Source: an uncultured Burkholderiales bacterium
GTDB taxonomy: Bacteria; Bacteroidota; Bacteroidia; UBA8524
Direction: 5' to 3'
DNA length: 64,000 nt
Assembly (NCBI GenBank): GCA_964584305.1
Contig: CAZOZL010000007.1
Coordinates: forward strand, 11,405 to 75,404
Below, piece by piece: positions 19,525 to 31,981 of the stretch. Made by a program: the position numbers and the translations under genes. Numbering within the stretch: position 1 is the stretch's first letter; the number at the start of each line of letters is the position of its first letter. The notes beneath the pieces are model-generated. The model was not told where the DNA came from and ran no database searches. It saw only the letters and a list, made by a program, of their open reading frames with translations.

Positions 19525-20838
19525 ATGCGCACCAAAACACATAAACAAAATAAGATAAATATAGTAACACTGGGTTGTAGCAAAAACTTGGTAGATAGTG
19601 AGGTACTATACAGTCAGCTAAAAGCAAACGACTACGAGGTAGAGCATGAATCAGCGAAAGATGACTCAAACATTATAATAGTAAATACGTGCGGTTTTAT
19701 AGATAATGCCAAGCAAGAAAGTATAGATACTATACTGCGTTATGTTGATGAGAAAGAAGAAGGTAATATTGATAAACTATATGTTACAGGCTGCCTATCG
19801 CAACGCTATAAAGACGATTTAGAAAAAGAAATACCGCAGGTAGATGCTTTTTTTGGCACATTAGAACTGCCCAATATTCTTAAAACATTGGGCGCAGACT
19901 ATAAGCATGATTTAATAGGCGAACGTTTAATAACTACCCCGCAGCACTACGCTTACCTTAAAATATCAGAAGGGTGTAACCGCCCGTGTTCCTTTTGTGC
20001 AATCCCATTAATGCGGGGCAAGCACGTATCAAAACCTATTGAGCAGTTGGTTATCGAAGCTAAAAACTTGGTAAAAAACGGCACAAAAGAATTGATGCTA
20101 ATAGCGCAAGATAGTACCTACTATGGTTTAGACTTGTATGGCAAGCGCAACTTGGCAGATTTGATGCGTAATCTTAGTGATGTGGAAGGATTAGAGTGGA
20201 TACGCTTACATTATGCCTTCCCGTCCCAATTTCCTGTGGATGCTTTGGAAGTAATGGCAGAACGTGAAAATATTTGCAACTATATAGATATACCCTTGCA
20301 ACACGCTACGGATAATATGCTTAAAATTATGCGTAGGGGCATCACTCGCAAACGCTCTGAGGATATAATAGAGACCATTCGTCAAAAAGTACCTAATATC
20401 GGTATTCGTACTACTATGCTGGTGGGACACCCTGGTGAAACCGAAAGCGAGTACAACCAGTTGGTTGATTTTGTAAAACAAATGAAATTTGACCGTTTGG
20501 GAGTATTTACCTACTCGCACGAGGAAAATACGCCTGCACACTCATTGGCTGATGATATACCCGCAGAGGAGAAAGAAGAGCGCGCCGAAAACCTGATGGA
20601 AGTACAGCAAAATATATCATTGGCTATAAACAAACAAAAAGTAGGAAATACCTACAAAGTATTGTTTGATAGGGTAGAAGGCGGGTATTTTGTAGGAAGA
20701 ACAGAATATGACTCTCCCGAAGTAGATAACGAGGTATTAGTAGATGCCAAAAACAACTATGTACGAGTGGGCGATTTTGCCAATATAAAAATTACTAATG
20801 CCGCCGAGTTTGATTTGTATGGCGAGGTTGTTGTTTAA
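19525..20838 (+). CDS. rimO: Ribosomal protein S12 methylthiotransferase
   Basis: TLGCSKNLVDSE, NTCGFI, CNRPCSFC radical-SAM motif and C-terminal TRAM domain. TACTTTTG promoter element at 19508-19515. Confidence 0.97.
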   Translation: MRTKTHKQNKINIVTLGCSKNLVDSEVLYSQLKANDYEVEHESAKDDSNIIIVNTCGFIDNAKQESIDTILRYVDEKEEGNIDKLYVTGCLSQRYKDDLEKEIPQVDAFFGTLELPNILKTLGADYKHDLIGERLITTPQHYAYLKISEGCNRPCSFCAIPLMRGKHVSKPIEQLVIEAKNLVKNGTKELMLIAQDSTYYGLDLYGKRNLADLMRNLSDVEGLEWIRLHYAFPSQFPVDALEVMAERENICNYIDIPLQHATDNMLKIMRRGITRKRSEDIIETIRQKVPNIGIRTTMLVGHPGETESEYNQLVDFVKQMKFDRLGVFTYSHEENTPAHSLADDIPAEEKEERAENLMEVQQNISLAINKQKVGNTYKVLFDRVEGGYFVGRTEYDSPEVDNEVLVDAKNNYVRVGDFANIKITNAAEFDLYGEVVV

Positions 20839-20862
20839 TTTCCACTTAAAAAAATAACAATT

Positions 20863-22473
20863 ATGCAAAGTATAGCTGCCAGCAAAGAGCATCTTACCCA
20901 ATATTATTCTAAAACAGTGGTCGATTATCTAAATCAAGACCCAAAGATTAAAGATTTTTACCAATATGGGCACGATGATGAGGGGTACAAGCAAAAAATA
21001 GCGCAACGTACTTTTGACGATAAATATAGGCTCACATTAGTTAGTATATTACAACAGCAATACAAAGACATATTAAAAGCAGATAGTGCAGTAGCTAAAA
21101 ATATAGCAGCCCTTGCAAACAAAGATACCTTTACTATTACAACAGGGCAGCAAATACATATATATTTAGGACCATTATATGTAGTAAATAAAATACTAAG
21201 CACTATTGCTAAATGTAGAGAACTGGCAAAGCAATATCCAAATAAAAAATTCGTCCCCATATTTTGGATGGCAAGCGAAGACCATGATTTTGAAGAGATA
21301 AACCATATAAAATTATACTATAAAGATTTTGTGTGGCAGGGAGAAGAAGGTTTTAAAGGAGCAGTAGGGCGACTGAACCCTGCAAGCATAAACGAGTTAA
21401 AAGAGCAAATAGGCGAAATAATTAGTAACGATGCTGATGCAACTAAATTATTAGCACTTTTTGCAGAAGCCTATACCAAGTTTAATACCTTAGCAAATGC
21501 CACACGATATGTATTGAATGTTTTATTTGAAGCACAGGGTGTAGTAGTGCTTGATGCTGACGATAAAGAACTAAAACAAATATTAAAACCCTATATACTT
21601 AAAGATGTTTTTGATAGTGAAAACCTTGAAGTAGCACAAGCTACAACTACACAACTCGAAATAAACTATAAGGCACAAATACACCCACGTGAAATAAATT
21701 TTTTTTACCTGACAGCAAAAGGACGTTACCGTATTGCAAAAGAAGGGGATACCTATAAAGCACTTGGTAGCTTTAATATTGAATTTACAAAGCAACAACT
21801 TGAAGCTGAAATAGAGCGACACCCAGAAAATTTTAGCCCTAATGTGTTGCTACGCCCACTGTACCAAGAAATAATACTACCCAATATAGCATACATTGGC
21901 GGTCCTGCTGAGGTGAACTACTGGCTACAACTAAAGGCAGTTTTTAATGCTAACAGTGTTCAGTTTCCAATTATAGAACTGCGTAAATCATTGATACTAC
22001 TGAATGAGAAAACAGAGCAAAGTATTGTAGATATAAGTATGGAGGTTACAGATTTTTTGCAAGATGAGAAAGTAATTATCAAAAACTTTATTCAAAAAAA
22101 CGCTACTGGAATTCCTAATTATGGCAACCATTATAAGGCGGTGGAAGAACAGTTAGAAACCATTAAACAAAAGGCACTTGAAGTAGATAAAAACTTAAAA
22201 CCTTTTTTAGAGGGGGAGTTTAAAAAAATAAGAGACACATTTGGTAAATTAGATGGCAAACTTCAAAAAATTGAGAAGCAAAAGTTCGATAATCAACTAA
22301 AAAAGATAGAAGCTATCAAAAATAAGTTTTTCACATCAGGAAAACTTGCAGAGCGAACAGATACTATACTTTCAGAGCCTCAAATTTGTAATCCACAGGT
22401 AATAGAAAATCTGTTAACAACTTTTGGTAAGCTAAAAAAACCACTCATCATCGTTTTGCCCCCATTAAGATAA
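20863..22473 (+). CDS. bshC: Bacillithiol biosynthesis cysteine-adding enzyme BshC
   Basis: TTGQQ...GPLY, FWMASEDHDFEEI, FSPNVLLRPLYQE and YIGGPAEVNYW. Confidence 0.95.
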   Translation: MQSIAASKEHLTQYYSKTVVDYLNQDPKIKDFYQYGHDDEGYKQKIAQRTFDDKYRLTLVSILQQQYKDILKADSAVAKNIAALANKDTFTITTGQQIHIYLGPLYVVNKILSTIAKCRELAKQYPNKKFVPIFWMASEDHDFEEINHIKLYYKDFVWQGEEGFKGAVGRLNPASINELKEQIGEIISNDADATKLLALFAEAYTKFNTLANATRYVLNVLFEAQGVVVLDADDKELKQILKPYILKDVFDSENLEVAQATTTQLEINYKAQIHPREINFFYLTAKGRYRIAKEGDTYKALGSFNIEFTKQQLEAEIERHPENFSPNVLLRPLYQEIILPNIAYIGGPAEVNYWLQLKAVFNANSVQFPIIELRKSLILLNEKTEQSIVDISMEVTDFLQDEKVIIKNFIQKNATGIPNYGNHYKAVEEQLETIKQKALEVDKNLKPFLEGEFKKIRDTFGKLDGKLQKIEKQKFDNQLKKIEAIKNKFFTSGKLAERTDTILSEPQICNPQVIENLLTTFGKLKKPLIIVLPPLR

Positions 22474-22501
22474 TTCATTACGCATACTCCTTTCCTATTC
22501 T

Positions 22502-22509
22502 TAACTTTG
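22502..22509 (+). promoter_or_regulatory. Bacteroidota -7 promoter element (TAACTTTG) upstream of the gldL-like gene
   Basis: TAnnTTTG 30 bp upstream of the ATG at 22539. Confidence 0.55.
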
Positions 22510-22538
22510 TTGGTAAGAATTAGGCTTAAAAGTGTGTA

Positions 22539-23081
22539 ATGGAAAGAACAAAACCCCAATTTGATTTTTTAAACTTTGTTTATGGTGTTGGTGCAGCAGT
22601 AGTAATACTAGGTGCAATAGCCAAATTTTTAGACTGGAGATATGCCGACGAAATATTTATTACTGGTTTGGGAACCGAAGTAATGGTATTTATCGTTTCA
22701 TCATTCAGGTTTAAAAGCAAAAAAAATGAATACAAGTGGGAAAAAGTTTTCCCAGGTATTTTAGAAGGTAGTGATGAGGAATTTAAAGCCTATGACCAAG
22801 TGGGTATGAATAACGAAATTGTTAAACGCAATACTGACTACCTCGAATCAAAACTTACACAAATGGAAGAGAATATTGATAAACTAAACGATGTATTCTC
22901 ACTACTCACACGCTCTATTGAAGGGATGAATACTGGTATCAAAAAACTTGAAGATGCAAACAATGGCTACGAAGGGCAAATGACCGAATTGAAAAAGAAC
23001 TTGAGCAGAATGAATGATTTTTATACCGATTTTAATGAGGTTATGGTGTATAAAAACAAAAAAGAAGAAGTTAAGAAATAA
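22539..23081 (+). CDS. gldL: GldL/PorL-family motor subunit (divergent, short paralogue)
   Basis: NFVYGVGAAVVILGAIAK...GLGTE...WEKVFP two-TM signature followed by a cytoplasmic coiled coil. Confidence 0.85.
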   Translation: MERTKPQFDFLNFVYGVGAAVVILGAIAKFLDWRYADEIFITGLGTEVMVFIVSSFRFKSKKNEYKWEKVFPGILEGSDEEFKAYDQVGMNNEIVKRNTDYLESKLTQMEENIDKLNDVFSLLTRSIEGMNTGIKKLEDANNGYEGQMTELKKNLSRMNDFYTDFNEVMVYKNKKEEVKK

Positions 23082-23102
23082 TTGAGCAGATAGAAGTAAA
23101 TA

Positions 23103-24647
23103 ATGTTTAACGTAGAAAATAGCGATTTAAGGCAAAAACTCATTAACTTGATGTATTTGGTATTTATTACCTTAGCCTTTATTTATTTACCGTCAGACTT
23201 TATTGATGCAACAAAATATATACAAAACTCATTTGTACAAACAGAAAAAGAATACAATACTAAAGTTGAAGCAAATCAAGGTTTACTAAAAGAGAGCTTA
23301 TACATAAACACCCCATTGGCAGAAGACTATTATAATATTTTAAATGTCTCAATTGATATTGACTCTACTGATGCACATATAAACAGGATGCTGCAAACTA
23401 TACAAAGCACAGTAGGAGGAAATAATGAATATGGATTTTTAAACAATTCGAAAAACTTTTTGTTAGGAAACGATTTAATTGTTAATAGCGGCGATGCTAC
23501 CATACTGCAAAGGCAAATAGAAAAAGTAAAGCAAAAGATAAAAGGATATGATTTAAAAAATGTAACCCCATTTTTAGACGATATTTTACCCACTTCTATT
23601 GATTTAAAGAATGCAGTAGGGAAAGAAAAGAGTTGGGAGAATTTCTTTTTCTCAAAAACGCCGATAGCGGTAATTAGTACAAATTTGCAAAAAATAAAAT
23701 CAGACTTAGCATATACAAAATTTAAGTTGGTGGAGTATTTGGTGAGCAATGTGAGCAAGGGGGAATCAAACAAAAAAATAAGTATATTGTCAAGTAACTC
23801 AATAGCGGTGGAGGTGTTAGCAGCAAAAAGTTTTTTATTAGGCGATAAAGTAGCTTTTAAAGTGATTTTGCTTGACTCTACAAAAGGCGCAGGCGCAGGC
23901 AATGGATATAAAAATGTTAAAGCCTACATAAAAAAGGGGAGAAACATTGTAAAAAAATTAAAAATAGGCAAAGGGGGGGTAATAAGCTATTTGGCAAATG
24001 AATCGGGAACTTTTAAGCTAATAGTTAAAGATACAGCCAATACTTCAACCCTTAAATTTGTAGTTAAAAATTTAAGAACTGCCTTTACTGAAAAAAATAG
24101 CCCTGAGGAGATGTATATGGGTATTGATAATCCTATACAAATAGAGGCAAGTGAGATAGACCTGAATAGTATTGAAACTGAAATAGATTTAGGCGAGGTT
24201 ATCCCTTTTGGTGGGAAATATTATTTGCGCTTTCAATCAGAAGGTATAGCGCATTTAAAAGTATATTCGGCCAATAAAGATGGGCGATACTTAGTAGTAC
24301 AAAAGACATATAAAGTAAAAAAATTACCCAATCCTGTGGTAACCATCGATGGAAAATCGGGCGGCAGCATATCACAAAAAATACTGCAAGTACAGGATAA
24401 ACTTGTAGCCCAATCTACTCTGATAACTGTTGAGGATGTGTATAATATTCTTAGCTTTGAAGTGATTAGAGTACACAGAAGGGGAAAGGATGTAGCAGTT
24501 AATAGAGGGGGTGTTTTTGGGTATGAAACAAGAAAGCTATTAAGGGAAACAAATAGTGGAGATTTAGTTATTATTGATAATATAAAAATAAAAGCAACCG
24601 ACGGTACTTTAAAAGAAGTGAGTCCCGTTGTATTTAGTGTGAAATAG
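23103..24647 (+). CDS. gldM: GldM/PorM-family motor subunit (divergent paralogue)
   Basis: RQKLINLMYLVF TM signature, SWENFFFSKTP helical domain, MYMGIDNPI, and C-terminal LPNP...GDLVIIDNIK. Confidence 0.85.
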   Translation: MFNVENSDLRQKLINLMYLVFITLAFIYLPSDFIDATKYIQNSFVQTEKEYNTKVEANQGLLKESLYINTPLAEDYYNILNVSIDIDSTDAHINRMLQTIQSTVGGNNEYGFLNNSKNFLLGNDLIVNSGDATILQRQIEKVKQKIKGYDLKNVTPFLDDILPTSIDLKNAVGKEKSWENFFFSKTPIAVISTNLQKIKSDLAYTKFKLVEYLVSNVSKGESNKKISILSSNSIAVEVLAAKSFLLGDKVAFKVILLDSTKGAGAGNGYKNVKAYIKKGRNIVKKLKIGKGGVISYLANESGTFKLIVKDTANTSTLKFVVKNLRTAFTEKNSPEEMYMGIDNPIQIEASEIDLNSIETEIDLGEVIPFGGKYYLRFQSEGIAHLKVYSANKDGRYLVVQKTYKVKKLPNPVVTIDGKSGGSISQKILQVQDKLVAQSTLITVEDVYNILSFEVIRVHRRGKDVAVNRGGVFGYETRKLLRETNSGDLVIIDNIKIKATDGTLKEVSPVVFSVK

Positions 24648-26812
24648 TGAAGAAAGTGTTGAAATATTGTGTTTTAGTTATTGCTATATTTGCTTTGCAA
24701 TTTTGTAAAGCGGGTGAGGATAGTACTGCTTTTACTCCTTTGGGTGGCAATATTTTTACGAATAGAACCTTAGAAAAGGGGCGTTATCTAATAAGCAGTA
24801 ACCTACGCATAGGTAAAGATGCTACACTAACCGTAGAAGCAGGTAGCCAACTAATTTTTAACCCTGGAACAGAAATAGTTGTTTTGGGTGGAATTGTAAT
24901 AAAAGGAACGCCCAATAACTTTGTTAAAGTATATAGCCTTAATGCCAGTGAAGAGGGTATAGGTATTAATATTACTGGCGATAATGCAAGTAAAGAGGTG
25001 ATGATAGAATACGCTAATTTCTCCTCGTTGTTACGCCCGTTTACTTTTGATAATAAGTGGTATAGAAACAAGGTAAGTATTACCTACTCACAATTTAAAA
25101 ACATTAACACAAACGATGCAGCTATTTTAGTTGCTGATGCTGAACACTTAAAAAATAAAACGATCGTTCCGTTTGAGTTTTCTCACAATGTATTTGCTGA
25201 TAATTTTAGCAATATCCATATCCATAATTTTTCCACATACAATATTGCGTACACCATTACCAACAATGTTTTTTATAACAACTCATACTACGATTATAGA
25301 GGTAGAGTAAAAAACAACCCTATATATGGAAACATTGATGATGACGAGAATAAGCTGCAAATGAAGTTTGAAAACAATGTTTTGATAAACAATACTGTTT
25401 TCCATGATGTGGCAGACACTCTTTTTGATTATTCAGGCTTTGGAGTTGAAGGTACAGCACAACTTATTTCAATACAAAACAACTATTGGGGTAGTAACGT
25501 GAGCAGGGCAGAGATAGAGCAAAGAACTTTTGGATTTAATAAAGATAAATTTGCCCCCAGCATAAATGTAGCACCCTATCTTAAAAAATCTCCCAGAACA
25601 AGTGCATTTATTGAAAAAGTAGAGGTGGATGGGCAGGAGTTTGATTTTAATTTACCCGCAATAGATTATATAGGTAAGCCAATAATTATCTATTTCTCGA
25701 AACCATTGGCAAAAAAACAAAGAGAAGCCCTTGCTGTGGTGTACCTTGATACATCAATAGGAAAAGTACTAAGCCAAAGAATAAGCAACTACCAGTTTAA
25801 TTATAATAACGGTGCAAAAACCGCTACACTGCTAATTGAAAAAGTAGAAGGGATAGAACACGCATTTTATCTAAAATTAAGCAACTTAATAGACGAGGAA
25901 GGCTTTGAGCTACCCAGTTGGGATTTTGGACGGTTTTATTTAAATAAAATATTTGGCAAGTATAAAAATGATAGGAATATTAACCTTGATTTATTTTTTG
26001 CTAATGCGGCACTTTGGAAAACCCCACCACAACAAGGCGAGTTTGAAACAATAGACCCAATGTTTAAAAACCTTGAAAAAAAGAAAAGAACGTTTGAAAT
26101 TGGTTTAATGAACGGGGTTACTAATTATTTTGGCGATTTAAGTACAAGTACTTTTAATCGTGATGAGATTAATTACGCCATAGGGTTACGCTTTAGATAT
26201 AACTTTAGAAAACGCTACTCCATTCGTGGAATGTTTGATTATGGTAGTTTAAGCGGTAGCGACAGACACTCGCAAAGCGATTTAAAACGTAGTAGAAACC
26301 TTAGTTTTCAATCAGTGTTATATGCTATTTCAGGGCAATTTGAGTACCATCTAAATAATTATGTATTTACTGATAGGTACAGGTTTATTCCAAGTATAAG
26401 CACGGGTTTTACTTTATTCCATTTCCGACCAACAGCAACAGTAGATGGTAAAACCTATGATTTAAATGCACTGGGAACAGAAGGGCAAACCTTACCTGGT
26501 GGGGCGGGTAAATACAATCTTACACAATTTGCCCTGCCTGTAAGTGCAAGCCTTAAAACAATGGTAGGGTATCACTTTATTCTCGAAATGGAGATTAATT
26601 TTATAAAAACATTCACCGATTATTTAGATGATGTAAGTGGTTTTTATCCAAACATAGGCAGTATACAGGCACAAAACCCAAGCGAGGATGCCGCAGCAAT
26701 TGGGAGCATAGTAAAGCCCTCATCACGTTTTAACGAAGGCGATATAAGGGGCGATCCTGATAAAAAAGACTGGTATTTGATATTAGGGTTAACATTATCA
26801 TACAGGTTTTAA
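24647..26812 (+). CDS. Fusion: parallel beta-helix + Ig-like domain + DUF6089 (PorG-like) outer-membrane barrel
   Basis: Signal peptide; N/F-rich beta-helix repeats ending NNYWG; IYFSKPL...LIDEEG Ig-like segment; barrel NYFGDL...RNLSFQS...LGTEGQ...TFTDYLDDVS...GDPDKKDWY...LSYRF. The GTG start overlaps the gldM stop. Confidence 0.7.
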   Translation: MKKVLKYCVLVIAIFALQFCKAGEDSTAFTPLGGNIFTNRTLEKGRYLISSNLRIGKDATLTVEAGSQLIFNPGTEIVVLGGIVIKGTPNNFVKVYSLNASEEGIGINITGDNASKEVMIEYANFSSLLRPFTFDNKWYRNKVSITYSQFKNINTNDAAILVADAEHLKNKTIVPFEFSHNVFADNFSNIHIHNFSTYNIAYTITNNVFYNNSYYDYRGRVKNNPIYGNIDDDENKLQMKFENNVLINNTVFHDVADTLFDYSGFGVEGTAQLISIQNNYWGSNVSRAEIEQRTFGFNKDKFAPSINVAPYLKKSPRTSAFIEKVEVDGQEFDFNLPAIDYIGKPIIIYFSKPLAKKQREALAVVYLDTSIGKVLSQRISNYQFNYNNGAKTATLLIEKVEGIEHAFYLKLSNLIDEEGFELPSWDFGRFYLNKIFGKYKNDRNINLDLFFANAALWKTPPQQGEFETIDPMFKNLEKKKRTFEIGLMNGVTNYFGDLSTSTFNRDEINYAIGLRFRYNFRKRYSIRGMFDYGSLSGSDRHSQSDLKRSRNLSFQSVLYAISGQFEYHLNNYVFTDRYRFIPSISTGFTLFHFRPTATVDGKTYDLNALGTEGQTLPGGAGKYNLTQFALPVSASLKTMVGYHFILEMEINFIKTFTDYLDDVSGFYPNIGSIQAQNPSEDAAAIGSIVKPSSRFNEGDIRGDPDKKDWYLILGLTLSYRF

Positions 26813-27067
26813 ACAACTAACCAGTATAGTTGTTTACTAAAATATACGATTTGACAATAGACTAAAATAACTGAATATAGGGGCTATATACCTTAACAAA
26901 GTACCGTTTTTGTTGCCCTTTGGGTGCATACATGATAACTGGCACTTAAATTAATTAGTATGCGAATGCTAAAAAGACCACTATAATCACTATTTTCGTT
27001 AATAACTAAGTGAAGAGAAAAAAGTAACAAAAATTATTATTGAATAAAGATTTACACTATTTTTATA

Positions 27068-28591
27068 ATGAAAGCAATCATAAAACTAAGTTTGGCGTTA
27101 GCATTGGCTAGCTTAATAGCTATGCCAGCAATTGGACAAAGGAAGTCTAATTCGTCAGAGTCGAAATCGTCAAAAAAATCATCTAAATCCAAAGCTGCAC
27201 GTTTTCTTTTTACAAAAGAGTCAAAACGTATGGCGGTAGGGATTCAAGCAGGTACATCTCTTTTCCATGGAGATGCTGACAAGTTAAGGTTAGGCTGGGC
27301 TTTAGGGGCTAACTTTCGCTACAATGCCTCTCACGTTTTAGGATTTAGAGCATTATTTAATGTAGGACGGGTGAGAAGTGGATTAACTAATCCTGGTGGT
27401 TCTAACTTTAGTGACTATGATTTTACCTCAAATGTTTTTGAGTACCAAGGGCAAATTATACTGACCGTAGGTAATATATCCTTTTTTAAAGAACACTGGA
27501 AGTGGAATATGTACACATTTGCTGGTGTTGGGCAAGTTATTATGAATAGTAAAACAGAATCAATAAGTGCTGATACTAATCGTACCCAAATTAATAAAAA
27601 TTATGACAGAACACATATTGCCTTTACCTATGGTATAGGTGTAAAACGAAATATTAATAAACGTTGGGATATTGGATTAGAATACGGAATGCGTTGGGTG
27701 CGTACTGACTCAATGGATATTATTAATGCGGCTATTCACCGTAACCGTAAATTTGATGCTTATTCGCTACCACAATTAATAATTAATTTTAAGATTGGTA
27801 AAAATGGAAGAGAGCATTTAGATTGGATTAACCCAATTGCCAGTGTGTATGAAGAAATAATAGGCTTAGAAGAAAAAATAGATAGATTAGATAAAGATAG
27901 TGATAATGATGGTGTTCCAGATCGTTTTGATAAAGAAGAAAACACACCCGAAGGTGCTAAAGTATGGGGCAGTGGTGAGGCTGTTGATTTAGATAACGAT
28001 GGTGTACCTGATATTAACGACCAAGAGCCTAATACCCCTCCAGGTGCTAAAGTTGACCCAAATACAGGTATGGCAGAAGACGAAGACGGTGATGGTGTCC
28101 CCGATATTTTAGACTTATCTCCTAATACAGACCCTAAGTACATGGTAAACCATCAAGGTATTCCTATCATGTCAAAAGACGCTTCAACCAATATAGTAAA
28201 TAATAAAGGCGATAATATAGTAACCAATATTGGTGGTAATATTAGCGGAGGAGGGATATTCTTTCTTCCTGCTGTTTTCTTTGCTACGGATATAGACGAA
28301 CCTTATCCAACACACTTGGTTGATTTACAGAATGTTGCCGAAGCAATGAAATACAATCCTAATATTAAATTGCAAGTAATAGGTAATGCCGATTTACGTA
28401 ATAGCGATAAATATAACTTGCGCTTAGCACAGCGCCGTGCTGATAACGTAAAGAAAATATTAGTGAAATTTGGTGTAGCAGCATCACGCCTAATAACTAA
28501 AACCAATGGCGAGCGTGTACCTATTATAACAGGTTCATCGCCAATGCACCTACAAGCCAATCGCCGTGTGCAGTTTTTTATAATGCGATAA
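27068..28591 (+). CDS. OmpA-family protein (N-terminal barrel, TSP3 Ca-binding repeats, C-terminal peptidoglycan-binding domain)
   Basis: DSDNDGVPD, DLDNDGVPD and DEDGDGVPD repeats; YNLRLAQRRA...NRRV. Confidence 0.9.
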   Translation: MKAIIKLSLALALASLIAMPAIGQRKSNSSESKSSKKSSKSKAARFLFTKESKRMAVGIQAGTSLFHGDADKLRLGWALGANFRYNASHVLGFRALFNVGRVRSGLTNPGGSNFSDYDFTSNVFEYQGQIILTVGNISFFKEHWKWNMYTFAGVGQVIMNSKTESISADTNRTQINKNYDRTHIAFTYGIGVKRNINKRWDIGLEYGMRWVRTDSMDIINAAIHRNRKFDAYSLPQLIINFKIGKNGREHLDWINPIASVYEEIIGLEEKIDRLDKDSDNDGVPDRFDKEENTPEGAKVWGSGEAVDLDNDGVPDINDQEPNTPPGAKVDPNTGMAEDEDGDGVPDILDLSPNTDPKYMVNHQGIPIMSKDASTNIVNNKGDNIVTNIGGNISGGGIFFLPAVFFATDIDEPYPTHLVDLQNVAEAMKYNPNIKLQVIGNADLRNSDKYNLRLAQRRADNVKKILVKFGVAASRLITKTNGERVPIITGSSPMHLQANRRVQFFIMR

Positions 28592-28610
28592 TTTCAGTAA
28601 ATCTTAATTA

Positions 28611-28645
28611 AAAAAACGTCGGGCTTATTAGTCTGGCGTTTTTTT
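28611..28645 (+). terminator. Intrinsic terminator after the ompA-like gene
   Basis: AAAAAACGTCGGGC/GTCTGGCGTTTTTT stem with G-U pairs, plus T-run. Confidence 0.65.
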
Positions 28646-28648
28646 ATG

Positions 28649-28770
28649 CCCGTCATTTCGAGAAAGCCAAATTGCAGCATAGGTAAAAACTGCAATACAT
28701 TGGTAGGAGTTAATTAATAAAATGATATCCTGCCTATGCCATTCAGGCGGGCTTCATCAACCTAAGAAGG
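28649..28770 (-). repeat. Partial, rearranged copy of the 55.8-56.5 kb repeat unit
   Basis: 28664-28711 matches the reverse complement of the unit segment AACCCCTACCAATGTATTG...TTTGGCTT. CCCGTCATTTCGAG and CCTAAGAAGG pieces are also present. Confidence 0.75.
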
Positions 28771-28828
28771 TTCTCTTGTCAAAGGAGTGGCTGAGAGAGG
28801 CAAAAATGCACTAAATTACCCTAAGCTG

Positions 28829-29365
28829 TTAACTACCCCTCAAAGCACTAACAATATGCCACAATGCCACCGCAGTGGCTACCGAGATATTTAAGGAGTG
28901 TTTAGTGCCGTGCTGTGGTATTTCAATCAAAATATCACAAGCATTTACAGCTTCTTGGCTCACACCATCTACCTCGCTGCCTGCTATTAGTGCAATTTTC
29001 TCATCAGCAGCAATAGTCCATTCATTAAGTAATGTGCTGCCTTCGGTTTGTTCTAACCCTGCAATAGTATAGCCTTGTTGTTTCAATTGTGCAATGGCGG
29101 TTACAGTATCAGGGTAGTGTTTCCAATCTACACTTAAATCAGAACCTAACGCCGTTTTTGTAATTTCTTTATGCGGTGGTTTCCCTGTTATTCCACACAA
29201 GTAAATAGCTTCTAAAGCAAAGGCATCAGTAGTTCTAAACACAGAACCCACATTATGCAAACTGCGGATATTATCCAGCACTACCACTACATTTAGTTTA
29301 TTTATATTTTTATATTCATCAACAGTCAACCTGTTTAGCTCAATATTTTTTAATTTGCGGACCAT
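28829..29365 (-). CDS. SpoU/TrmH-family RNA methyltransferase
   Basis: VLDNIRSLHNVGSVFRT, GSEVDGV and IPQHGTKHSLNISVA. Confidence 0.92.
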   Translation of the reverse strand: MVRKLKNIELNRLTVDEYKNINKLNVVVVLDNIRSLHNVGSVFRTTDAFALEAIYLCGITGKPPHKEITKTALGSDLSVDWKHYPDTVTAIAQLKQQGYTIAGLEQTEGSTLLNEWTIAADEKIALIAGSEVDGVSQEAVNACDILIEIPQHGTKHSLNISVATAVALWHIVSALRGS

Positions 29366-29368
29366 AAT

Positions 29369-31981
29369 TTGGTAAATAAAAAGAAAAATAAGGGTGAAAC
29401 ACCGCTAATGCGGCAATACGCGCAAATTAAAACAAAATACCCTGGTGCGCTTATACTTTTCAGAATAGGTGATTTTTATGAAACCTTTGGCGAAGATGCT
29501 ATTATAGCCTCTAAAGTGTTGGGTATTGTGCTTACCAAAAGGCATAATGGCTCTGCCAATGAGATAGAATTAGCAGGTTTTCCGCACCATTCTTTAGATA
29601 CTTACTTGCCAAAATTAGTAAGAGCGGGCTATCGTGTTGCCATTTGCGACCAGTTAGAAGACCCTAAAACGGTTAAAGGCATTGTGAAACGTGGCGTTAC
29701 CGAGTTGGTTACCCCAGGGGTATCCTATAATGATAAAATTGTTGATGTAAAAGAAAGTAATTACTTAGCGGCGATATATCAGGAAAATAAGCAATATGGA
29801 TTGGCTTTTTTAGATATTAGCACAGGCGAGTTTATGGTGGCGCAAGGACAGTTAGAATATGCTGATAAGCTATTGCAGGGGCTAAAACCATCAGAAGTGA
29901 TTTTTACTAAAAGCTATAAAAACGATTTTGAAGCCACTTTTGGCAACCGATTTTATACCTACGGATTAGAAGATTGGGCTTTTGGGAAAGACCACACTTA
30001 TGATAAACTTATCAAACATTTCGGCACAAAATCACTAAAAGGCTTTGGGGTAGATGATTTTGGCTTAGGCATAGTAGCGGCAGGTGCAGCTATACAATAC
30101 CTTGAAGATACCCACCATACCGATTTAGGACATATAAGAGCTTTATCTCGATTAGAAGAGGATAGATATGTTTGGTTGGATAGGTTTACCATTCGTAATT
30201 TAGAACTGATACGCCCCAGTAACGAAGGGGGAAAAGCACTTATTGATATAATAGACCAAACCAATACGCCAATGGGGGCAAGGCTACTACGCAAGTGGTT
30301 GCTTTTGCCCTTAAAAGAATTACGCCCCATTGCCGATAGGCATAATATGGTGCAATACTTTTTTGATAATGAGGAGAAGTGTGAGGAACTTTTAGGGGTA
30401 TTGAAACAAATGGGCGATTTAGAACGCCTAATATCAAAAGTAGCACTTAAACGTATTAGCCCTAAAGAAGTGGTGCAGTTGCGTCGCTCGTTAGAGTTGA
30501 TAAAACCTATTAAAGAACTTTGTGCCACAAGCGAACTAATAGAACTACAACGCTTGGCTGATTTGCTTAACCCTTGTCAACTATTAGTAGATAAAATAGC
30601 CAAAGAAGTAGTAGAAGACCCACCTGCTTTGCTAAATAAAGGGGGAGTGGTAGCAAATGGTGTAGATACTGATTTGGATGATTTACGAGAGATTAAATTT
30701 TCGGGGAAAGATTTTTTAGCCAAAATACAAAAACGTGAGGCAGAGAAAACAGGCATTACATCATTAAAAATATCGTTTAATAATGTTTTTGGATATTTCT
30801 TAGAGGTTACCCATGCACACAAAGATAAAGTACCTGCCGAGTGGGTGCGTAAACAAACTTTGGTAAATGCAGAACGCTATATAACCGAAGAACTAAAAAT
30901 ATATGAGGAAAAGATTTTAGGAGCTGAAGAAAAGATACAAATAATAGAGAACCGCATATTTACCGATTTGCTCAATTTCTGTTCAGAGTATATAAGCCCT
31001 GTGCAGCAAAATGCGAATGTATTAGCGCAATTAGACTGTATTAGCAACTTTGCAGTAATAGCAAAAGAGAATAAATATACTCGCCCCATTGTGAGCGAAA
31101 ATTTTGAAATAACGCTAAACCAGCTGCGCCATCCTGTAATAGAAAAACAACTACCCATTGGCGAAGAGTATATACCCAATGATATTTATCTGGATAATGA
31201 AAAACAGCAGGTAATTATACTTACAGGACCAAATATGTCGGGTAAGTCGGCTTTATTACGCCAAACTGCATTAGCTATCTTATTAGCACAAATGGGAAGT
31301 TTTGTGCCAGCAACGGAGGCAAAAATTGGCTTAATAGATAAAATATTTACCCGTGTGGGAGCGTCAGATAATATATCGTCGGGGGAGTCTACTTTTATGG
31401 TAGAAATGTTAGAAACTGCCAGTATTTTAAATAATGTTTCATCACGTAGTTTAATATTATTAGATGAAATAGGCAGGGGAACAAGTACCTACGATGGGGT
31501 GTCGCTTGCATGGGCAATAGCAGAGTATTTAAACAATACACCCGAAAAGCCTAAAACCATATTTGCTACCCATTACCACGAGCTAAATGAGCTGGAAAAG
31601 AAAACAGAGGGGGTAGTAAATTACCATGTTACGGTGAAAGAGATAGACCAGAAAATTATTTTTTTACGTAAAATAAAGCAGGGGGGAAGCGAGAGTAGTT
31701 TCGGTATTCATGTAGCAAAAATGGCAGGCATACCCACTAAGGTAGTAGAGCGTGCTGATGAGATTTTAGGTAGATTGGAAGAAGACAAAGCCATGATTAG
31801 CGGGAGGCAAACTTTTAAGAAAATACCACAAAAAACCTTTCAGGTAAATATGTTTCAAGCGGATAACCCACATTTGGCGAAATTAGAAGAAGCACTTAAT
31901 AAGCTCGATTTAAATGTATTAACCCCTATTGAGGCAATGATGAAACTTAAAGAGCTAAAAGAAATACTACCAAAAGAGTAA
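29369..31981 (+). CDS. mutS: DNA mismatch repair protein MutS
   Basis: TPLMRQY, GDFYETF, TGPNMSGKS, STFMVEM and DEIGRGTSTYDG. Confidence 0.98.
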   Translation: MVNKKKNKGETPLMRQYAQIKTKYPGALILFRIGDFYETFGEDAIIASKVLGIVLTKRHNGSANEIELAGFPHHSLDTYLPKLVRAGYRVAICDQLEDPKTVKGIVKRGVTELVTPGVSYNDKIVDVKESNYLAAIYQENKQYGLAFLDISTGEFMVAQGQLEYADKLLQGLKPSEVIFTKSYKNDFEATFGNRFYTYGLEDWAFGKDHTYDKLIKHFGTKSLKGFGVDDFGLGIVAAGAAIQYLEDTHHTDLGHIRALSRLEEDRYVWLDRFTIRNLELIRPSNEGGKALIDIIDQTNTPMGARLLRKWLLLPLKELRPIADRHNMVQYFFDNEEKCEELLGVLKQMGDLERLISKVALKRISPKEVVQLRRSLELIKPIKELCATSELIELQRLADLLNPCQLLVDKIAKEVVEDPPALLNKGGVVANGVDTDLDDLREIKFSGKDFLAKIQKREAEKTGITSLKISFNNVFGYFLEVTHAHKDKVPAEWVRKQTLVNAERYITEELKIYEEKILGAEEKIQIIENRIFTDLLNFCSEYISPVQQNANVLAQLDCISNFAVIAKENKYTRPIVSENFEITLNQLRHPVIEKQLPIGEEYIPNDIYLDNEKQQVIILTGPNMSGKSALLRQTALAILLAQMGSFVPATEAKIGLIDKIFTRVGASDNISSGESTFMVEMLETASILNNVSSRSLILLDEIGRGTSTYDGVSLAWAIAEYLNNTPEKPKTIFATHYHELNELEKKTEGVVNYHVTVKEIDQKIIFLRKIKQGGSESSFGIHVAKMAGIPTKVVERADEILGRLEEDKAMISGRQTFKKIPQKTFQVNMFQADNPHLAKLEEALNKLDLNVLTPIEAMMKLKELKEILPKE

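Follow-up and report, generated by a model that had tools for sequence, protein, structure and literature searches.

A second GldL/GldM gene pair linked to a beta-helix/barrel fusion gene in Bacteroidota: a putative envelope-spanning machine, apparently undescribed

Can a motor of the GldLM type work on an outer-membrane partner of its own, without the GldK/GldN track found in the T9SS (type IX secretion system)? The question is raised by a stretch of 64,000 nucleotides (nt) on contig CAZOZL010000007.1 from an uncultured member of the Bacteroidota (assembly GCA_964584305.1; genome G000 below); "the window" denotes this whole stretch. In it, bshC is followed by a GldL-like gene (L2), a GldM-like gene (M2), a gene for a fusion of a beta-helix, an immunoglobulin (Ig)-like sandwich and a beta-barrel (P721), and a gene for an OmpA-family protein (OmpA507). 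To our knowledge, few classes of ion-driven rotary motor exist, GldLM among them, and the only processes that GldLM has so far been known to drive are type IX secretion and gliding, in both of which it acts via a large GldK/N(/J) track. An earlier note, drawn from the letters of the sequence, had proposed that L2 and M2 form a second, diverged motor with its own outer-membrane partner, and had counted the OmpA protein in as a possible peptidoglycan anchor. From the comparisons reported here, the unit is L2-M2-P721, without the OmpA gene, and we lean, if not strongly, toward viewing it as a GldLM-derived proton motor that acts directly on its own outer-membrane partner with no GldK/GldN track.

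L2 and M2 are a second GldL/GldM pair

The earlier note had been prepared to give up its reading if these were the only gldL and gldM genes in the genome. They are not: contig C4 of the same genome carries a canonical porP-gldK-gldL-gldM-gldN operon, whose GldK (545 bits), GldL (198 bits), GldM (351 bits) and GldN (161 bits) all exceed the NCBIfam cut-offs. Because this operon is present, L2M2 is a second GldL/GldM pair and not a relocated canonical one. Pfam and NCBIfam profile searches of the eight open reading frames (ORFs) at 19525–31981 of the window matched neither GldK nor GldN, in keeping with the earlier statement that gldK is missing upstream and gldN downstream. The genes gldK and gldN were found only at the C4 locus and not beside L2M2, which sets the arrangement apart from the T9SS core operon gldKLMN.

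The divergence of the pair, for which the note had proposed gene trees as a check, also shows in such trees. In a GldM tree of 31 rows (15 module, 16 canonical) and a GldL tree of 27 rows (15 module, 12 canonical), a single branch splits the two groups, in each case with a value of 100 in the Shimodaira–Hasegawa-like approximate likelihood-ratio test (SH-aLRT). Both trees came from quick, unrooted IQ-TREE searches, and long branches were flagged for the rows of the f9 and f26 lineages. Labels were set by BLAST score and coincide with genomic context: a P721-like gene lies downstream at every locus that supplied a module row, and the canonical rows were taken from gldK..gldN loci or are extra copies found elsewhere. 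L, M and P721 show the same recurring groups inside the module clade, a pattern that fits their being inherited together.

Further gldM-like genes accompany the canonical operons. On C4, a 355-amino-acid (aa) GldM-like ORF lies directly after gldN (G000:C4:79869-80936; L006 9869-10936); it matches positions 223–517 of the GldM profile only (domains D2–D4) and has neither a transmembrane (TM) helix nor D1. In other genomes of the genus, a second GldM, also full-length, lies some 2 kb 3' of the first. In the sister-genus genome G008 (L027, G008:C42), the gldM-gldN pair is tandemly duplicated, giving gldM-gldN-gldM'-gldN'.

L2, M2 and P721 are conserved as a three-gene unit

The order rimO-bshC-L2-M2-P721-ompA is retained in 6/6 further genomes of the genus; in a seventh, which is fragmented, M2 is in two pieces. 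A search of 5.8 billion proteins returned 17 full-length relatives of P721, all at least 53% identical to it. We also carried out a six-frame search of 301 genomes of the class with P721 residues 1–471, which gave matches at E <=1e-3 in 29 genomes. The matches were long in six genomes of the genus and in G142, G045, G092, G284, G163, G213, G242, G106 and G039; in the remaining 14 genomes, the matches were short and N-terminal and lay in ORFs of different sizes. With a profile of the module L2, exactly 15 of the same 301 genomes reached 189 bits or more; the next score was 112, and canonical GldLs were at about 80–108. These 15 are the very genomes that have long P721 matches, and the two matches share a contig in each (14/14 without the unpublished G106). 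Outside the genus, the module is present in 9 of the 295 genomes of the class sample.

Two GldL-type ORFs of about 297 aa from one genus (G176:C12:13581-14054 and G209:C111:15298-15771) score 112 bits with the L2-module profile, between the module (at least 189) and the typical canonical range (80–108). No P721-like match was seen in either genome in the class-sample search.

Eight of the nine distant loci, from five families, were examined (that of G106 was left out). In all eight, L2-like, M2-like and P721-like genes lie in this order on one strand, their ends overlapping or nearly abutting, and the flanks hold unrelated housekeeping genes. A sample of 401 genomes of the phylum yielded one further carrier, G611, in which an M2-like gene adjoins a P721-like gene; this locus is short, and the L2-like gene is not visible in it. 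The order L-M-partner is held in 9/9 distant genomes inspected (the eight and G611). Linkage to the fusion gene, whose absence from all relatives would have told against the earlier note, thus extends well beyond the genus. The other 108 genomes of the phylum sample with matches (E <=1e-6) contain short stretches, mostly of profile positions 1–135, in large repeat proteins; G601 and G625 each gave a short match to the Ig part.

The partner is seen more widely in a library of 1.84 billion representative proteins, 228 of which matched the P721 N-terminal profile at E <=1e-30. Among the 150 matches listed, 92 are one-stretch proteins (one of them two-stretch) and 58 are giant multi-repeat proteins. 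Eighty of the 92 are at least 600 aa long, and 75 of these have a barrel; the other 12 are shorter and barrel-less, and some are fragments. Among the matches listed, the partner architecture amounts to about 75 metagenomic clusters at 50% identity. The module is rare but real.

The limits of the unit emerge from the sister genera. OmpA507 has single orthologues there, 43–47% identical. Searches with M2 found no module in G008–G014, and G008, G009 and G010, the three of these genomes that were also searched with P721 and with the L2 profile, gave none either. The gene order is bshC-ompA-spoU(-)-mutS in G008 and G010, bshC-ompA in G009, and ompA-spoU-mutS, at a contig end, in G011; by ORF calls, ompA begins 3 to about 60 nt after bshC. 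In G000 and G002, the frame is identical and has L2-M2-P721 between bshC and ompA. Because the triad is an exact indel beside a pre-existing ompA in this comparison, the unit is three genes, not four. OmpA507 is a neighbour, probably outside the module, and its adjacency is inherited synteny; the part in the machine that the earlier note had given to the OmpA protein falls away with the orthologue that follows bshC in sister genera in which the triad was not detected. Of the lineages examined, genus g1 and G142 are the only ones with an OmpA-type neighbour.

The arrangement in G142 (L039 9003-15351, G142:C90) is unusual in itself. A barrel-less partner gene (449 aa) overlaps by 4 nt the gene for a 660-aa PD40+OmpA protein, after which comes that for a 968-aa PD40+OmpA+SPOR protein. 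Similar barrel-less forms, 445–462 aa in length, occur among the library representatives (P0046, P0048, P0049 and P0053).

L2 and M2 retain the core residues of a GldLM motor

The residues by which L2 and M2 can be judged come from Flavobacterium johnsoniae. GldL E49 and Y13 and GldM R9 and Y17 are membrane-core residues reported to be important for motor function (10.1101/2020.05.11.089193). GldL K27 and H30 sit in the periplasmic loop that contacts GldM (10.1101/2020.05.11.089193; 10.1101/2022.01.28.478170).

L2 matches GldL_N (PF22827) at 8e-21. Aligned to the solved GldL and PorL chains, it keeps the Tyr, Lys and Glu that correspond to Y13, K27 and E49, and equivalents of all three are present in 15/15 module GldLs. 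The loop position of His30 is occupied by Asp in L2, and by Asp or Gly in 15/15 module GldLs, versus His in 12/12 canonical ones. This replacement fits a separate, co-evolved L-M interface. Against TIGR03513, L2 scores 83.5 bits (cut-off 68.3), but the match is confined to profile positions 3–69 of 247. The tail is short, such that the whole protein has 180 aa versus 208–305 aa in the 12 aligned canonical GldLs. As a member of the GldL family, then, L2 has the TM region with its Tyr, Lys and Glu; His30 and a full-length cytoplasmic match are missing.

M2 matches GldM domains 1, 3 and 4 in Pfam. It also matches TIGR03517 from end to end, with 95.4 bits, which is below the 180-bit cut-off; the canonical copy on C4 reaches 351 bits. 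The RQKLINLMYLVFI motif of M2 carries the equivalents of GldM R9 and Y17, and in a 24-row alignment of M2 proteins the Tyr is invariant, with the Arg conserved to 90% or more. The AlphaFold2 (AF2) model of M2, with a predicted local distance difference test (pLDDT) value of 76, has three beta domains in addition to a TM helix and a helical D1. In Foldseek, the model is matched best by the periplasmic domains of PorM/GldM (7cmg, 6ey4, 6ey5 and 6ey6). M2 accordingly has the TM helix with Arg and Tyr and the domains D1–D4 of a GldM, with a score short of the curated equivalog cut-off.

Comparison of G000 with two congeners gave nonsynonymous divergences (dN) of 0.10–0.29 and synonymous divergences (dS) above 1.4 for L2, M2 and OmpA507; the dS values are saturated, so that the ratios are rough. 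The estimate of constraint covers these three genes, as P721 gave no computable dS. By these sequence comparisons, L2M2 is constrained and probably a functional motor, with a periplasmic L-M interface that has diverged from the canonical one.

At three of the eight distant loci, all of the f9/f26 lineages, two GldM-like paralogues of about 465 aa lie between the L2-like and the partner gene. The first paralogue of L044 has an apparent Asn at the Arg9 equivalent and an Arg three residues on (aligned by eye). The paired paralogues hint at a heterodimeric axle.

A role for L2 and M2 as a defence system was considered and rejected. PADLOC matched the coiled-coil tail of L2 (residues 93–165; window 22815–23033) to the cytoplasmic tail of ZorA with 20.6 bits (E 3e-5) and gave 15.8 bits for M2; both are read as noise of composition and coiled coils, which is probably the source of the ZorA match.

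P721 is a candidate outer-membrane partner without a PorG tail

The AF2 model of P721 was built from a 16-row alignment and has a mean pLDDT of 74; its parts are given in Table 1. By Foldseek, the barrel matches the folds of OmpA, OmpX, Ail and OmpW, and by profile it matches DUF6089 and PorG (NF052316; 119.5 bits over residues 481–721, below the 130-bit cut-off). PorG is described as an 8-strand outer-membrane protein of the T9SS that is disulfide-bonded to GldK/PorK (PMC12635249; PMC12365241), and the cysteine that bonds to GldK Cys343 is located in its periplasmic C-tail (PMC12635249). P721 ends at the last strand (..TLSYRF) without a periplasmic C-tail. Its only cysteines, at positions 8 and 20, are both in the signal peptide. 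Among P721-family proteins, a cysteine is found in the last 25 residues of 0/12 diverse members and in the last 30 residues of 4/80 representatives. Because the C-tail cysteine of PorG is absent, P721 is, judged from its sequence, not a PorG equivalent, and the label "PorG-type" that the earlier note had used in connection with such barrels does not apply in the functional sense.

What P721 shares with PorG is the DUF6089-type 8-strand barrel with its TDYLDD-type loop motif. It differs in the score below the cut-off, the missing C-tail and tail cysteine, and a putatively periplasmic N-terminal extension of about 450 aa. The GldK/GldN track of the T9SS is disulfide-linked to the PorG barrel, whereas in P721 the barrel and the N-terminal part are fused in a single polypeptide. 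The beta-helix/Ig part should be periplasmic in the model, because the number of barrel strands is even and the PorG C-tail is periplasmic.

Genome G000 also has four stand-alone PorG-like genes. Three are in tandem on contig C2 (G000:C2:95098-97615; L089-L091), all of them over the NF052316 cut-off, and the fourth lies about 19 kb from the tandem (G000:C2:116415-117017; L093). In each of the four ORFs, the last barrel strand is followed by a short C-tail that contains one cysteine.

In gene position, P721 resembles GldN/PorN: both follow a GldM-type gene, and the GldM tip is presumed to act on both in the periplasm. They differ in that P721 has no detected sequence similarity to GldN (neither a match to the GldN model nor a BLAST match to the GldN of the same genome) and in its fold of beta-helix, Ig and barrel.

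The N-terminal part was further examined by three means. In the ESM Atlas, it fell among generic right-handed beta-helix/NosD-like clusters at 0.78–0.82, below the 0.9 lead level. Across 12 diverse partners, the invariant residues of the beta-helix are G81, S97, G104, G106, G111, W138, R140, N212, N249, G269 and P304. Complex prediction for two copies of M2 336–514 with P721 28–432 gave a median score of 0.28 versus a mark of 0.32, in runs made without controls, a value that does not bear on contact in either direction.

A proposed mechanism and its alternatives

The mechanism toward which we lean would run as follows. L2 and M2 would most likely assemble as a proton-driven inner-membrane motor of the 5:2, GldL5GldM2 type, as their conserved core residues suggest, and this motor would be distinct from the T9SS/gliding motor that the canonical genes encode at their own locus. 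In the manner of GldM/PorM, the dimer of M2 would reach across the periplasm, with its distal domains acting on P721 at the beta-helix/Ig part, itself periplasmic. A flexible linker, some 40 residues long, would suspend that part below the 8-strand barrel of the same protein. Because the barrel and the motor-facing periplasmic element are one polypeptide, the motor could push or turn an outer-membrane protein directly. Both the contact between M2 and P721 and the independence of L2M2 from GldK/GldN are points that we infer.

A bolder proposal, which we hold tentatively and stop short of favouring, is that L2-M2-P721 adds a third functional class to the GldLM-type motors of secretion and of gliding: a minimal, track-free machine of three proteins, whose rotor would drive a barrel via the fused beta-helix without a GldK/GldN ring or a PorG disulfide relay. 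Such a track-free machine could be a simplified derivative or a relic of an ancestral form of the T9SS core.

Several observations weigh against the proposed mechanism. M2 scores under the curated GldM cut-off. L2 matches the N-terminal third of the GldL model only, and the cytoplasmic side of L2M2 may, on this sequence evidence, work differently. The beta-helix has no invariant acidic residue across the 12 diverse partners and gives no hint of an activity. Finally, a canonical GldM scores over its cut-off in every module-bearing genome checked (8/8, and G000), so that dependence on GldK/N is compatible with the distribution.

This last point bears on the alternative that survives best, which we nevertheless regard as unlikely: L2M2 could be a swappable or auxiliary stator that, in some conditions, engages the canonical track of GldK/GldN(/GldJ), much as dual flagellar stators do, with P721 as an accessory or cargo-like outer-membrane protein on that track. 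It is in accord with the canonical T9SS core that all checked carriers also encode, with the GldM D3–D4 fold that M2 retains, and with the 119.5-bit relationship of the P721 barrel to PorG. However, the base rate of the T9SS in the class is high, which makes its co-occurrence with the module uninformative, and the gene that co-occurs with the module in 15/15 cases is that of the partner, not gldK or gldN. The module clade is on a long branch with the loop His30 replaced. Moreover, the P721 family mostly lacks the tail cysteine for coupling to GldK (present in 0/12 and 4/80), in contrast to the four PorG-like ORFs of G000, all of which have one.

Tol-Pal and TonB-ExbBD are 5:2 inner-membrane ion-driven motors that energize outer-membrane partners. 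The module resembles them in general terms, in that a periplasm-spanning motor subunit would act on a protein anchored in the outer membrane; it differs in that its subunits are of the GldLM family, unrelated to ExbB/TolQ, and in that an OmpA-type neighbour is not conserved. It is improbable, in our view, that the locus encodes a Tol-Pal-like envelope-integrity system in which the motor and peptidoglycan-binding OmpA-family proteins such as OmpA507 tether or remodel the outer membrane, which would be the four-gene machine of the earlier note. An OmpA-family gene does follow the triad in 7/7 genomes of the genus, and the 449-aa barrel-less partner of G142 does overlap the first of two PD40+OmpA genes by 4 nt. 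On the other hand, the OmpA507 orthologue stands directly after bshC in G008, G009 and G010 and before the same spoU-mutS in G008, G010 and G011, without the triad. A gap of 255 nt separates P721 from ompA, versus overlapping or nearly abutting genes within the triad. No OmpA match was found in the downstream genes scanned or searched by BLAST at 7/8 distant loci (opposite-strand genes and the G611 locus left out).

That L2M2 is a decaying or functionless gldLM duplicate beside an unrelated outer-membrane protein gene, as the low curated-model scores (M2, 95 vs. 180 bits; L2, N-terminal match only) might suggest, is disfavoured and hardly credible, given intact frames in all genomes seen, retained motor residues, dN far below dS, gene order and co-occurrence conserved across at least six families, and the roughly 75 clusters of the common partner architecture among the library matches listed.

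Gene layout and a candidate promoter

The features of the locus are collected in Table 1. The account of the sequence in the earlier note, with gldL- and gldM-like genes after bshC, a TAGTG overlap, a fusion gene and an OmpA gene, was borne out throughout. The TAG stop of M2 (24645–24647) overlaps the GTG start of P721 (24647–24649), giving TAGTG; the genes within L2-M2-P721 overlap or nearly abut, and the gap from P721 to ompA507 has the 255 nt mentioned above. Downstream of OmpA507 comes spoU, which is encoded on the minus strand, and beyond it mutS.

Table 1. Features of the L2-M2-P721 locus and of related loci. Coordinates are those of the window unless a locus or residue numbering is given.
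Feature	Position	Strand	Description	Basis
rimO	19525-20838	+	upstream neighbour of bshC	
bshC	20863-22473	+	TIGR03998, 375 bits	profile match
TAACTTTG	22502-22509	+	Bacteroidota -7-type promoter-like box, 30 nt 5' of the L2 ATG	read directly
L2	22539-23081	+	GldL-like inner-membrane protein, 180 aa; two TM helices, short coiled-coil cytoplasmic tail	
M2	23103-24647	+	GldM-like bitopic protein, 514 aa	
M2, TM helix	aa 4-28			
M2, helical D1	aa 35-215			
M2, beta D2	aa 234-322			
M2, D3	aa 336-406			
M2, D4	aa 412-513			
P721	24647-26812	+	putative outer-membrane partner, 721 aa; beta-helix/Ig/8-strand barrel	
P721, signal peptide	aa 1-25			
P721, beta-helix	24734-25576	+	about aa 30-310, right-handed	AF2
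P721, Ig-like sandwich	25604-25936	+	about aa 320-430	AF2
P721, flexible linker	25940-26059	+	aa 432-471, low confidence	AF2
P721, 8-strand DUF6089 barrel	26090-26809	+	aa 482-721	AF2
OmpA507	27068-28591	+	barrel-TSP3-OmpA protein, 507 aa	Pfam OmpA, OMP_b-brl, DUF6089, TSP_3
Two GldM-like paralogues, L044	L044 11730-13130	-		
Two GldM-like paralogues, L045	L045 6815-8206	+		
Two GldM-like paralogues, L046	L046 6872-8269	+		

The TAnnTTTG element that had been noticed at 22502 is present as TAACTTTG; we take TAnnTTTG to be the Bacteroidota -7-type promoter consensus. Such boxes are not enriched in the window (96 matches vs. 104.8 expected). The box 5' of L2 is kept in 7/7 genomes of the genus, and the remaining spacer diverges. 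It is found at -35 to -37 from the L2 ATG in 4/7 of them; in the other three, the ORF calls begin at an upstream TTG or GTG, and the distance of the box is that to the likely ATG. The conserved box lends modest support to a promoter of L2's own. A sigma-70 scan of 22300–29400 gave 17 promoter-like sites vs. 27 expected, with a model that is uninformative for Bacteroidota. No convincing plus-strand terminator between the genes was found in a scan of the same region, which is likewise uninformative for this phylum. The GC content of the triad is 31–36%, compared with 35–40% in the flanks, and is no clear sign of recent transfer.

The spacer between P721 and ompA507 (window 26813–27067; 170–258 nt across the genus, L019-L024) retains short conserved blocks. 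One, similar to AATATACA, lies about 25 nt past the P721 stop, and another, GTTAATAA, near the start of ompA.

Comparison with known motors and implications

Like the GldLM/PorLM motors of F. johnsoniae (GldL5M2, 6ys8) and P. gingivalis (PorLM, 7sat), the module has adjacent genes for a two-TM GldL-type and a bitopic, four-domain GldM-type protein, and it keeps the membrane-core Tyr and Glu of GldL and Arg and Tyr of GldM. Unlike them, it forms a separate clade, has no adjacent gldK or gldN, has a short GldL tail and has His30 replaced; the gene that follows the pair is always that of the beta-helix/barrel protein instead of gldN.

Neither a second GldLM-type module nor DUF6089 was found described in searches of the full-text literature, although supplementary tables of T9SS comparative genomics might list such paralogues. 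In public annotations, the proteins appear as "GldM family protein", "gliding motility-associated protein GldM", "DUF6089 family protein" or "hypothetical". The module is apparently an undescribed, putative envelope-spanning machine.

If the proposed mechanism is true, the GldLM family of motors has been put to a further use. The transfer of force from a GldM-type shaft to the outer membrane could then be studied in a much simpler setting, with three proteins as opposed to about twenty. A Ferruginibacter strain, whose GldM-family protein P0038 is 30% identical, is a candidate for a cultured carrier. The module occurs in complete genomes (for example G002 and G004), possibly from isolates, and may therefore be open to experiment.

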